45,139 bases of DNA from a virus (IMGVR_UViG_2713897161_000005), one strand, 5' to 3'; numbered from the stretch's first letter, positions 9,451-12,101 are shown. Notes: generated by a model not told the origin, from the letters alone. Made by a program: numbers and translations.

Positions 9451-9481
9451 ATTAAACAAAAACCCAGCCGAAGCTGGGTTT
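9451..9481 (-). terminator. Intrinsic terminator closing the accessory island
   Basis: Minus-strand RNA forms an 8-bp stem AACCCAGC/GCUGGGUU with UUCG loop, followed by UUUGUUUAAU; lies 11 nt downstream of the ORF ending at 9492. Confidence 0.55.
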
Positions 9482-9491
9482 AGTGAATTGG

Positions 9492-9710
9492 CTAGTTATC
9501 AAAAAGTCCGTACGTTTCTTCTTCAGGAGTAAGGGGAAGAATCTCAATTCTATCTATAGATACCTTTTCAATGTACCCATGAGGTCTACTTAAAATTAAA
9601 GCTCTCTCATGCCACAGAACTCCAAGAATGTGATACCTTCCAGCATCGCCTTTTACCCTGGCTCTTCCTTTGATTCTTGGCGGCATAATGCCATATTTTT
9701 TCTTTGCCAT
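9492..9710 (-). CDS. Hypothetical protein (72 aa, basic N-terminus)
   Basis: ORF MAKKKYGIMPPRIKGRARVKG...; last gene of the island operon before the terminator. Confidence 0.4.
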   Translation of the reverse strand: MAKKKYGIMPPRIKGRARVKGDAGRYHILGVLWHERALILSRPHGYIEKVSIDRIEILPLTPEEETYGLFDN

Positions 9711-10438
9711 TATGCAACATTACTCCCATGAACCAGGTGTTGTAGTGCTTTAACGCCTTCAGAATTGTAGCGGAATGCTTCCACCTGTTTGCTGGAATGC
9801 GCAGATTTATCCAGGAAGAACTTCCCGTACTGCTCAGTTTTGAGGTTGTTTGCGTTAGCAATGCGACCAATCTTGTTTGCCGTTACTCCAAGCTGCTCTG
9901 CGACCTCCCCTGCTGAGTAGTAATGCTCTTCTATTGCCGGAAGAGGTATTGCATTAAAACCAACGAGCGGGTTGATTATACTTGCTGCCGCTGTCTGCTT
10001 TGCCTCCGGCGCAAGATTTGGCATCAGATCGAACAGATTGGTAACAGCTTCAACCGTCATTTTCAATGTTCGCGCTTGACGATACTCAACAAGTCCACTC
10101 GACGATTTACCGCTTTTAATGTGCGCTTCTTGCATCCTTTCAAGTTGGTCTACAAGTGAGCGGCGAACAGCTTTAGATTCACGAGCAGCCACTCGAAGGG
10201 CTTGCTTAATTGACATAACAACTTTTTCAGAAGTTGTCTTGTTTGATTTTTGAACTACGAAAATTTCGTAGTGCTCACCTTCAAGTTCATCCTTAATGCG
10301 TGCAATAAAGTCGTTATTTCGAACTTCTTTTTCCCCGCACTGTCTACGAGCATGATTGACCATCTCTAACAGGTACTGGCTATCAATGGTTTTATCCGTG
10401 ACAACGGATCCGATGTTTGCTACATTCTTAAAAGTCAT
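9710..10438 (-). CDS. Antirepressor-like / phage regulatory protein (KilA-C-type C-terminal region, putative)
   Basis: Start at ATG 10438 (MTFKNVANIGS...) preceded by AAGGAA; C-terminal segment YSAGEVAEQLGVTANKIGRIANANNL resembles antirepressor DNA-binding regions (from memory). Confidence 0.45.
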   Translation of the reverse strand: MTFKNVANIGSVVTDKTIDSQYLLEMVNHARRQCGEKEVRNNDFIARIKDELEGEHYEIFVVQKSNKTTSEKVVMSIKQALRVAARESKAVRRSLVDQLERMQEAHIKSGKSSSGLVEYRQARTLKMTVEAVTNLFDLMPNLAPEAKQTAAASIINPLVGFNAIPLPAIEEHYYSAGEVAEQLGVTANKIGRIANANNLKTEQYGKFFLDKSAHSSKQVEAFRYNSEGVKALQHLVHGSNVA

Positions 10439-10475
10439 TAGGCATTCCTTATGTGGTAGTAAGGGTGTGACATAG

Positions 10476-10504
10476 GCCGCCAGCAGCACACTGGCGGTTT
10501 TTTT
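10476..10504 (+). terminator. GC-rich hairpin plus T7 tract, part of a three-segment alternative-pairing element
   Basis: GCCGCCAG(10476-83)/CTGGCGGT(10491-98) then TTTTTTT (10498-10504); a third copy ACCGCCAG at 10506-13 can pair alternatively. Lies between the two antirepressor-like genes. Confidence 0.4.
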
Positions 10505-10521
10505 CACCGCCAGATGCGTCA

Positions 10522-11445
10522 TTAATACAGATGAACAGAAGGCGGCAATTCTTTATTCTTAAGCCTTATCCATGCGGAAAGATTTGTTGGTCCGTCTGGC
10601 TCATTGATATCAACATCTCGTGTGTGGTTGATTAAAACGTCTCTCGCCGTTCCGATAACATACGAGAACTCATGACCGTAGTCGTAGCATCTGCCGGAAT
10701 AGTTCGATTGAATTTGTTTTAGCGCCGGATACAGTTCGCGGAATAATGCCTGTGAGCGGTTGGCATAATCCCATAGCCATACAAGGCTGTTTGCTTCTTT
10801 TGCAGAAAGCTCGTTGACTTTCCTCTCTTGTTTGCCGATGAACTCTCCTTCAAGCGGAACGCGAGCAGCAAGTGACAGTGCTTCGGTAAACTGCTCCTCA
10901 CTGATTTCTTTGTACGAACATCCAAAATGGGATTTCAGTGACGACCACATGGTGATCATCGCCTTAGCCTGTTTTTCTTTTGGCAGAGACTGACCGCGAC
11001 TCATGACGAGTTGTTTAATGGCTTCCTGCTGTTCAGTGGTAATTTTACCCGGCAACGCCTTTTTAGCTTTGCGTGGATTAACCACATGGCCTTTAGTCCA
11101 GTATTCGTAGAGCACATCGTCACACTCTTCCTGATACTGGATTACCTTGTCGCGGATTTCAGGGCGGACTTTGTTTGGTTGAATACTTGAAAGCCAAGCC
11201 GCAAATTTACGAAAGGCAAGACATGTCATTAACTGTTTACCGCCAGCAGAAGGTATTTCGATTTCCGAAATACCTTTGGCAAACCTTTGTTTTAACTTAA
11301 CAAATTGAGCAGCCCAAACCAGCCCCATGCCTTCAACAACAGGCCTCATAGGAACATAAGGCTCATTGTTAATTCCAACCAAAAACAGATTTGTTCCGTG
11401 GAATGGTACATTGATAGTAGATACCGCTGTTGCTATACTTTTCAT
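10522..11445 (-). CDS. Antirepressor (Ant-like), 307 aa
   Basis: Large ORF directly downstream of an Arc-like gene, as ant follows arc in P22 immI; N-terminal region looks antirepressor-like (from memory). Confidence 0.55.
   Translation of the reverse strand: MKSIATAVSTINVPFHGTNLFLVGINNEPYVPMRPVVEGMGLVWAAQFVKLKQRFAKGISEIEIPSAGGKQLMTCLAFRKFAAWLSSIQPNKVRPEIRDKVIQYQEECDDVLYEYWTKGHVVNPRKAKKALPGKITTEQQEAIKQLVMSRGQSLPKEKQAKAMITMWSSLKSHFGCSYKEISEEQFTEALSLAARVPLEGEFIGKQERKVNELSAKEANSLVWLWDYANRSQALFRELYPALKQIQSNYSGRCYDYGHEFSYVIGTARDVLINHTRDVDINEPDGPTNLSAWIRLKNKELPPSVHLY
11411..11439 (+). promoter_or_regulatory. Near-consensus sigma70 promoter antisense to ant (Psar-like)
   Basis: TTGATA (11411-16), 17-bp spacer, TATACT (11434-39); lies inside the first codons of ant on the opposite strand. 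Confidence 0.5.
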
Positions 11446-11518
11446 GTCAATATTTCCCGATCAGATTTGTTGATATAGAAGCCTCGCCAGTTCCCGCTGT
11501 CGGGGCTTCGTTATTTTT
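11446..11518 (+). ncRNA. Candidate sar-like antisense RNA (~70 nt) covering the ant RBS and arc-ant spacer
   Basis: Predicted start ~11446 from the promoter above; ends at a hairpin (11478-11509, GAAGCCUCG/CGGGGCUUC) followed by GUUAUUUUU. Same layout as P22 sar. Confidence 0.45.
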
Positions 11519-11678
11519 AGAGAGCATTCCGCATTTTCTCCCGGTACTTCAACCACCAAGCAAGTCCCTGAACCAACACTGAGTTTTCTGACATCCCCTC
11601 TTCCTTGGCGATGCGTTTCACCTCCTCCTTAAAACGGTACGGATACCGAAGAGTTGTCTTCACTTCATTCTTTTCCAT
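11517..11678 (-). CDS. arc: Arc-like ribbon-helix-helix repressor (53 aa)
   Basis: Uncalled small ORF with AAGGAG 7 nt upstream of ATG: MEKNEVKTTLRYPYRFKEEVKRIAKEEGMSENSVLVQGL...; matches the Arc pattern LRWPREV...ENGRSVNSEI. Confidence 0.55.
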   Translation of the reverse strand: MEKNEVKTTLRYPYRFKEEVKRIAKEEGMSENSVLVQGLAWWLKYREKMRNAL

Positions 11679-11700
11679 TGATCACTCCTTTTTACGTAAT

Positions 11701-11761
11701 GGCATTATGCCTTGAAAGCAATATGCCATCATTGAATATAAATAGCAATATGCCATCATTG
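11701..11761. promoter_or_regulatory. Divergent promoter/operator region between arc and mnt
   Basis: Two perfect 17-bp direct repeats GCAATATGCCATCATTG (11718-34, 11745-61); palindrome GGCATtATGCC (11701-11); TTGAAA(11712-17)...TATAAA candidate promoter toward mnt. Confidence 0.45.
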
Positions 11762-11780
11762 TTTTTTTTGAGGTGATGTT

Positions 11781-12101
11781 ATGGCTGAAAAACAGGTTAA
11801 AGATTACGAAAAGTTTGTTGTGCGTTTCCCTGACGGGATGAGGGACGCGATTGCGGAGAGAGCCAAACGAAACGGGCGCTCTATGAACTCAGAGATTGTG
11901 CAGATACTGGAAGATGCCTTGAATGCAGAAAATACTCTTGGGGAAATAGCAGACAAAATCAACAGCGTCTCGGTTCCGCTAAATGTTGATGCGCTAGTTC
12001 AACTTCAAGCCCAAGTGATCGCCATGCAAAAAGAAATACAGGAAAAATTCAGAGAGCAGAACGAAAAGTTGAGAGAACTGCTAAACAAAAAACCCACCTG
12101 A
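11781..12101 (+). CDS. mnt: Mnt-like ribbon-helix-helix repressor (106 aa)
   Basis: N-terminus FVVRFPDGMRDAIAERAKRNGRSMNSEIVQILEDAL matches the Mnt/Arc RHH pattern; GAGGTGA RBS; divergent from arc. Confidence 0.6.
   Translation: MAEKQVKDYEKFVVRFPDGMRDAIAERAKRNGRSMNSEIVQILEDALNAENTLGEIADKINSVSVPLNVDALVQLQAQVIAMQKEIQEKFREQNEKLRELLNKKPT

Follow-up and report, generated by a model that had tools for sequence, protein, structure and literature searches.

A candidate sar-like antisense RNA ending at an intrinsic terminator between two antirepressor-type genes of a prophage

In P22-like phages, an "ant moron" of the immI type is known to be embedded in the late operon (PMC2629481). The sar RNA of P22, an antisense RNA of 68/69 nt, pairs with the ant mRNA and blocks the initiation of antirepressor translation (PMC12197685; PMC2629481), and its sequence starts with the complement of the ant start codon (PMC13397905). 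For phages P1 and P7, the small RNA c4 has been described, which blocks the synthesis of ant by pairing around the ribosome binding site (PMC12197685). Here we compare with these systems a prophage locus in which the cistron following ant, itself an antirepressor-type gene, is probably guarded by a small cis-antisense RNA of its own.

The three-segment element and its operon

The window (the whole stretch of 45,139 nucleotides of IMGVR_UViG_2713897161_000005 that was analysed, with positions counted from its first letter) is a prophage adjoining a tRNA-Arg(CCT) gene, with its late genes on the minus strand. The prophage end lies within 1-2402, where tRNA-Arg(CCT) at 1009-1083 is followed by a plus-strand ORF of 397 aa (1209-2402) that is probably the integrase, and from ~2.5 to 32 kb the phage genes are essentially all on the minus strand. 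Since the late genes run on that strand, we read the region around ant as an immI-type "ant moron" in the late operon. The features of the region are as follows.

9460-9481, minus strand: intrinsic terminator (AAACCCAGCTTCGGCTGGGTTT followed by a T-run; terminator scan) at the end of the arc-ant-gene 2-orf72 operon
9492-9710, minus strand: ORF of 72 aa (orf72), PHROG 4977
9710-10438, minus strand: gene 2, the putative target, 242 aa; PHROG 1726 "anti-repressor", no Pfam domain
10398-10403, plus strand: GTGACA, -35 hexamer of the predicted antisense promoter (promoter scan), within codons 12-14 of gene 2
10418-10426, plus strand: extended -10 element TGCTACATT of the same promoter, with TG at 10418-19 and the hexamer at 10421-26, within codons 5-7 of gene 2
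10433-10504, plus strand: predicted cis-antisense RNA of ~72 nt, its 5' end taken from the promoter and its 3' end from the T-run
10434-10471, plus strand: 5' stem-loop domain of the predicted RNA (per-sequence folds)
10474-10504, plus strand: intrinsic terminator made of segments 1 and 2, stem 10474-83 / 10491-500, loop CAGCACA, T-run 10498-10504
10505-10521, no strand assigned: junction-specific linker with segment 3 (CCGCCAG at 10507-13; 8-bp arm at 10506-13), outside the conserved element
10522-11445, minus strand: ant, P22-type antirepressor gene and upstream cistron of the same operon (Pfam P22_AR_N, 1.1e-39; P22_AR_C, 5.1e-29)
11411-11439, plus strand: sar promoter TTGATA-17-TATACT with TG (promoter scan)
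11447-11513, plus strand: sar RNA of the canonical type between arc and ant (32.2 bits with Rfam RF00262, E 3.6e-4, under the gathering score of 43)
11517-11678, minus strand: Arc-like gene
11781-12101: Mnt-like gene, divergent

The element lies in the 83-nt spacer between the stop codon of ant (10522-24) and the second antirepressor-family gene (9710-10438, minus strand). On the plus strand it consists of G10476, CCGCCAG (10477-10483, with GG directly 5' of it), the loop CAGCACA, CTGGCGG (10491-10497), seven T's (10498-10504), the dinucleotide CA, and CCGCCAG once more (10507-10513). A sequence-only reading had described it as three serial segments, of which the middle one can pair with either flank, and the repeat search bore this out: it returned the direct repeat (10477-83 and 10507-13) as well as the two inverted pairs, the second of these being a perfect complement of 8 bp (CTGGCGGT at 10491-98 and ACCGCCAG at 10506-13). 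RNA folding of both strands, proposed as a check in that reading, returned two alternative hairpins near-equal in energy on each, at -14.3 vs -13.7 kcal/mol on the minus strand and -11.7 vs -12.9 kcal/mol on the plus strand, and on the minus strand the spacer folds better than its shuffles (z -3.1). Each of the inverted arrangements is present a single time in the 45-kb window and was produced by 0 of 100 dinucleotide shuffles. The heptamer CCGCCAG alone is present in 14 copies against 4.25 expected; because the remaining copies are scattered singly, the element is not REP-like. The possibility raised earlier, that REP-like copies exist elsewhere in the genome, was rejected together with that of a dispersed repeat, as the window holds one palindromic copy and the covariance model described below has no second credible match in it. 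Two other readings of CACCGCCAG / CTGGCGG were likewise dropped: that of a lambda-operator-like site, for which the half-site orientation is wrong and the spacing variable, and that of a Chi-like site, for which the sequence differs from GCTGGTGG and the spacing is again variable.

Both flanking genes are of the antirepressor type, as had been read from the sequence: ant carries the P22_AR_N and P22_AR_C domains, and gene 2 belongs to PHROG 1726, its relatives being annotated "KilA" in some phages. Gene 2 starts with the ATG at 10438, behind the Shine-Dalgarno (SD) sequence AAGGAA at 10445-50, and RefSeq annotates the same start in relatives. An ATG overlapping the ant stop codon (TAATG, window 10520-10524) opens an in-frame N-terminal extension of gene 2 by 28 codons (ORF 9710-10522), which we rejected as coding sequence: it is not conserved in frame because the length of the T-run drifts, T7, T8 and T9 shifting the frame, and the RefSeq start gives a protein of 242 aa. 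With T8 and T9, the SD or the gene 2 TAATG would be where the short ORF ends. Upstream ORFs reading through the hairpin in other contexts were also ruled out, the upstream stop codon always lying before the A-rich run that the T-run represents in mRNA sense. The hairpin of the operon's final terminator at 9460-9481 is also found directly 3' of ant in CUS-3, phi330 and Stx2a_WGPS8, and by this comparison gene 2 and the 72-aa ORF appear to have been inserted between ant and its usual terminator in this prophage.

A conserved terminator and a predicted antisense RNA

We collected ~150 phage and prophage loci encoding relatives of gene 2 at 66-100% amino-acid identity, and BLAST searches were run against phages and 5,426 complete E. 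coli genomes. Throughout the operon-internal cases among these ~150 loci, the first hairpin and its T-run are always found upstream of the gene 2 homologue. Here another antirepressor-family ORF (Bro-N + P22_AR_C or P22_AR_N + P22_AR_C) precedes, with its stop codon 65-94 nt before the gene 2 start, and the spacer holds, in mRNA sense, an A-rich run, the GC-rich hairpin, ~35 nt and the SD, while the sequence upstream of the A-run belongs to at least eight unrelated types. Homology of the gene 2 module detected by BLAST runs from within the gene to 10504, the last T, in ~80 E. coli genomes at 95% identity or more and in phages JEP4, phiKp_30 and KP12; the ant module matches from ~10521 onward. 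Judged by where these matches end, the predicted RNA gene and its target travel together as a mosaic cassette bounded by the terminator's last T. The cassette is widespread, being found in phages and prophages of Escherichia, Klebsiella and Proteus. At many loci (L155, L184, L188, L189, L198), a small hairpin straddles the upstream antirepressor stop codon, directly upstream of the A-run, in forms such as TTGCA-atga-TGCAA, TTTGCA-gtga-TGCAAA and, apparently compensated, TTTGCG-gaga-CGCAAA (L198); at type-B junctions the same site reads TGCGCC-ggac-GGCGCA.

Segments 1 and 2 together with the T-run are, by their sequence, a canonical intrinsic terminator for plus-strand transcription, with a GC-rich stem-loop followed by a U-tract on the transcribed strand. 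The stem has a 7-bp GC-rich core (CCGCCAG/CTGGCGG), which a G.U/A-U extension brings to 10 pairs, and it is followed by T7 behind a loop of 7 nt. The automated terminator scan missed this site, the G-T extension of the stem taking up three of the T's, and detected the homologous terminator in the Proteus penneri locus L229. The homopolymer at 10498-10504 is polymorphic (T7, T8, T9) among otherwise near-identical prophages; other junction types have an interrupted T-run (TTTTCTTTTT).

An alignment of 52 distinct homologous sequences (A1), in which the helix comprises 10 pairs, upholds the earlier view of the first hairpin and T7 as a plus-strand terminator, in that an element of the intrinsic-terminator type is conserved. 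Standard pairs occupy 98.1% of the stem cells, and double compensatory changes are seen at 3 pairs in 20 cells (GC to AU; CG to GC, AU, UA or GU; CG to UA), although ~40 of the 52 sequences have an unchanged core CCGCCAG/CTGGCGG, which leaves few independent covariation events. Stem variants include CCGGTAG/CTACCGG, CCGATAG/CTATCGG, CCAGCAG/CTGCTGG, CCGTCAG/CTGACGG and CCAATAG/CTATTGG. The observed covariation score was reached by none of 500 shuffles, and sliding the 3' partner by 1-3 columns lowered the pairing to 22-57% and the covariation to at most 0.139, as against 0.253.

Most of this covariation fits a hairpin in the sense mRNA equally well, and the two strands are told apart only by the asymmetry of G.U and A.C pairs and by the T-run. 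In five sequences of the alignment, pair 55-69 is G.U on the antisense strand, which corresponds to an A.C mismatch in the mRNA. Such G.U-carrying patterns arose in at least two separate forms (CCGGCAG/CTGTCGG and CCAGCAG/CTGTTGG), with a further case in Proteus faecis (L228); the opposite asymmetry, G.U in the mRNA with A.C on the antisense strand, was not seen among the same sequences. On the antisense strand, the stem always has a T-rich run (TTTTTTT, TTTTCTTTTT, TTTTCTATTT or TTTTCTGTTTTT) on its 3' side, whichever of at least eight unrelated upstream sequences stands before it; on the sense strand, no U-tract comes after the stem in the homologous contexts.

Upstream of the terminator on the plus strand, within the first 14 codons of gene 2, the promoter scan predicts a promoter GTGACA-17-TACATT with TG before the -10 hexamer. 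TACATT agrees with the consensus at only 4 of 6 positions, and the region is not enriched in promoter-like matches as such (3 found vs 5.4 expected). Among 45 distinct 5' coding sequences, GTGACA at the 17-nt spacing is kept in 43 and TGn-TA[A/C]A[T/G/C]T in all 45. Codons 5, 6, 7, 12 and 13 show zero synonymous differences across 116 distinct genes. Amino acids vary at codon 6 (V/L) and codon 7 (A/S/T/P), yet in these two codons nucleotide positions 2 and 3 are invariant; codon 14 is free to vary at its third position, which lies one base beyond the -35 hexamer. Because the bases stay fixed while the amino acids of codons 6 and 7 change, the comparison points to selection on the nucleotides of the opposite-strand motif and not on the protein. 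Constraints on translation initiation are also expected to lower synonymous variation in the first codons of a gene, and the fraction of synonymous differences is 0.15 in codons 1-10 vs 0.28-0.59 per 10-codon bin from codon 21 on.

With a start ~7 nt past the -10 hexamer, the 5' end of the predicted RNA is placed at ~10433. The RNA so delimited folds into two hairpins (-25.1 kcal/mol), of which the first, the 5' domain, holds CAU at 10436-38, the complement of the gene 2 start codon, and UUCCUU at 10445-50, the complement of the SD AAGGAA. Its outer stem pairs GUCA, complementary to the start-codon region, with UGAC in the leader. The structure of this domain was taken from per-sequence folds, its interiors being unalignable for a consensus; all subfamilies (64-78 nt) have the same two-hairpin fold with the SD complement inside the 5' stem-loop domain, and in nearly all of 52 variants the outer-stem pairs G2-C, U3-A and C4-G are kept. 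In a Proteus-type clade (L220, L221, L225) they are replaced by C2-G and U3.G (CUCA/UGGG), a compensated change that pairs better on the antisense strand. The covariance model R1, built from the 52 distinct homologues of A1, matches exactly 10433-10504 on the plus strand at 73.8 bits, and no second credible match was found elsewhere in the window.

Two groups of loci serve as natural controls. In the Proteus penneri locus L229 (615-713), and likewise in L230, an unrelated Bro-N N-terminus replaces the 5' end of the coding sequence; L229 keeps the antisense terminator together with a promoter-like TTGACT-18-TACTAT in the first 12 codons and is matched by R1 at 49.6 bits. Homologues that are not operon-internal and have their own upstream sense-strand terminator and promoter are without the antisense RNA. 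Among these, the IMG/VR loci L132-L135 and L216-L219 have a different gene 2 N-terminus and a sense-strand terminator-like hairpin (ATCCTCGC..GCGGAGAT followed by TTTCTTTTAT) ~60-110 nt upstream; by sequence they appear to be transcribed as units of their own.

The hairpin and T-run at 10474-10504, which end 17 nt before the ant stop codon, are thus likely in our view to be the Rho-independent terminator of a sar-like cis-antisense RNA of ~72 nt that guards gene 2. The anatomy of the locus, the conservation and covariation of the stem, the strand asymmetry and the nucleotide constraint on the promoter are matters of observation; transcription of the RNA is what we infer from them, and repression of gene 2 translation is suggested by analogy with sar. 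None of the Rfam families matches the predicted RNA above noise, and no description of it was found in the literature; we would best file it as an undescribed RNA within a known class, that of cis-antisense RNAs guarding an antirepressor cistron.

The third segment and alternative readings

Segment 3 lies in the 16-nt linker 10505-10520 and is confined to loci where ant is directly upstream, namely 6 of the 5,426 E. coli genomes and 7 IMG/VR contigs. It is absent from more than 90% of the homologous cassettes, and all copies spanning the joint are near-identical, with T7, T8 or T9; because they are near-identical descendants of one junction, the presence of the segment is uninformative on selection. 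BLAST gave no match for 10505-10520 outside the ant junction among phages and E. coli genomes, and an exact-match scan of IMG/VR for another source of the 16-mer gave the same junction and unrelated chance matches. Downstream of ant in CUS-3, phi330, WGPS8 and Oslo, other sequences stand in place of the linker. In mRNA sense, segment 3 is similar to the arm of the hairpin together with a stretch of its loop (GCATCTGGCGG vs GCTGCTGGCGG), so that it possibly came about by partial duplication at the joint. Most probably it is a lineage-specific linker, made where the cassette joined ant and without a regulatory role, and we take the three-segment look of the locus to have come about incidentally, where two modules were joined; a minor effect of the segment on mRNA folding may exist. 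Conservation in relatives, on which the sequence-only reading had made its proposal depend, was accordingly found for the first hairpin and its T-run and not for the third segment.

That reading had seen two mutually exclusive hairpins on the coding minus strand, resembling an attenuator or RNA processing site; as a model, the three segments would act in the mRNA as an attenuator, a riboswitch-like switch or a processing site for the downstream gene. The pairing itself stands: both minus-strand hairpins are possible and near iso-energetic, the spacer folds better than its shuffles, a perfect 8-bp complement so near a hairpin is improbable by chance, and the sole natural variant of segment 3, CTGGTGG (L065, L079, L215), keeps G.U pairing in mRNA sense and not on the plus strand, although it reflects one event and carries little weight. 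The regulatory role is not supported. In attenuators, the antiterminator partner is transcribed before the terminator and the U-tract lies on the regulated strand. Here, segment 3 cannot pre-empt the plus-strand terminator hairpin because it is transcribed only after the T-run, that is, after the 3' arm for which it would have to compete; neither minus-strand hairpin has a U-tract or includes the SD or the start codon; and the segments are not all conserved among homologous leaders, the third being missing in every other upstream context. Folding predicts the SD to be unpaired with a probability of 0.49 when segment 3 is present and 0.51 when it is absent, and the distance from segment 2 to segment 3 changes with the length of the T-run (A7-A9 in mRNA sense). 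A related idea, that segment 1, once freed in the type-A mRNA, sequesters the SD, was hinted at by the minimum free energy fold and abandoned, the ensemble accessibilities being equal with or without segment 3. As segment 3 occurs only in the ant junction, lies beyond the T-run and leaves the accessibility of the ribosome binding site unchanged, we regard an attenuator or switch as highly improbable.

Two explanations retain the conserved hairpin and do without a dedicated antisense RNA. The hairpin could be a stabiliser or processing element of the sense mRNA, with cleavage in the A-tract and a 5' hairpin protecting the gene 2 message. An RNase E site with a protective 5' stem-loop would be expected to show, as here, an A-rich tract and a stable hairpin behind it, the hairpin is always intercistronic at 65-94 nt before the start codon, and most compensatory changes pair on both strands; this reading nevertheless has to accept A.C pairs in the sense strand where the antisense strand has G.U, in 5 of 52 sequences and L228 and never in reverse, and it leaves unexplained both the conservation of an opposite-strand promoter motif and the re-creation of a promoter on non-homologous coding sequence. 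We consider it unlikely as the sole explanation, and an element of this kind could coexist with the antisense RNA. The other explanation keeps the plus-strand terminator, which is itself well supported, as an insulator against longer antisense transcripts, for instance from a convergent mnt-type gene: JEP4, 55989 and A10 have a plus-strand mnt/Arc-family gene ~1 kb to the promoter-proximal side, pointing at the terminator. The window and KCJ3K291, however, keep the terminator without a plus-strand gene there (from ~2.5 kb up to the terminator, that side is all minus-strand late genes), and an insulator predicts neither the invariant TGnTAnAnT/GTGACA 70-105 nt upstream nor a conserved 5' stem-loop on the complement of the start codon and SD. 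It appears to us very unlikely.

Proposed role and comparison with known systems

In the mechanism that we propose, the RNA would be transcribed from the extended -10 promoter in the first 14 codons of gene 2 and would consist of the 5' domain, with the start-codon and SD complements, and the 3' terminator hairpin. It would pair with the polycistronic arc-ant-gene 2 mRNA (Pant transcripts) across the gene 2 initiation region, and read-through transcripts of the late operon would be paired as well; this pairing would block ribosome binding and perhaps trigger cleavage of the duplex. Each antirepressor cistron of the operon would thereby have an antisense guard to itself.

Provided that this RNA is made, the second antirepressor gene would have a sar-type post-transcriptional control of its own, which would bear on how induction and the lysis-lysogeny balance are set in many prophages of E. 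coli, Klebsiella and Proteus. A regulatory class with very few known cases (sar, c4) would gain a new RNA family, and the locus would exemplify a coding-embedded promoter that visibly constrains codon choice. The locus also suggests that the boundary of a phage mosaic module can coincide exactly with the terminator of a small RNA, and, for annotation, that a strong terminator on the "wrong" strand within an operon may be a flag for a cis-antisense RNA. To a specialist, such an RNA would be plausible rather than surprising, and the finer interest would lie in the promoter embedded in the coding sequence, its rebuilding after a swap and the module boundary at the terminator. A wider proposition, which we hold to be evenly balanced between right and wrong, is that immI-type antirepressor cistrons would each have a private, non-homologous antisense guard RNA; that the portable cassette would comprise the small-RNA promoter (first 14 codons), the RBS and the small-RNA terminator, would constrain the N-terminal codons, would be rebuilt on an N-terminal swap, would have its boundary at the last terminator T and would represent a widespread undescribed family in Escherichia, Klebsiella and Proteus; that two antirepressors would in this way be independently controlled in one operon; and that segment 3 would re-fold the mRNA and tune the pairing in the ant-adjacent lineage.

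With attenuators of the trp/pyrBI kind, the locus shares three serial segments of which the middle one pairs with either neighbour; it differs in that the extra partner comes after the plus-strand T-run and that the minus strand has no U-tract. The likeness to c4 of P1 and P7, as a small RNA against antirepressor synthesis with pairing at the ribosome binding site, is looser than that to sar. c4 is cut out of the very transcript on which its target lies and works at sites upstream of ant; it is not known to be transcribed convergently, as a cis-antisense RNA, from a promoter of its own within the target gene.

The closest comparison is with sar, which the prophage also carries. The sar site at 11447-11513 folds into two hairpins (fold z-score -6.0), and the homologous site in E. 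coli A10 (L006) scores 42.2 bits. In a cmscan of 10300-11800, RF00262 gave no match at 10433-10504 even at E up to 10, only 11447-11513 being listed, and R1 in turn gave no match on the sar site. The new RNA, which is a predicted one, thus differs from sar in having no detectable sequence or covariance-model homology to it in either direction, and in its target, a PHROG 1726 protein with no Pfam domain as against P22 Ant. The analogy is therefore architectural only, and within that limit it extends to each part of the arrangement: both would be small cis-antisense RNAs (68/69 nt for sar, ~72 nt for the predicted RNA), with a promoter that lies at the very start of the antirepressor coding region and points backwards; the 5' end of each lies a few nucleotides within the gene, whose start codon and SD the RNA covers; both have two hairpins and end at an intrinsic terminator in an intercistronic spacer of the same operon; and both lie in an ant moron within the late operon.
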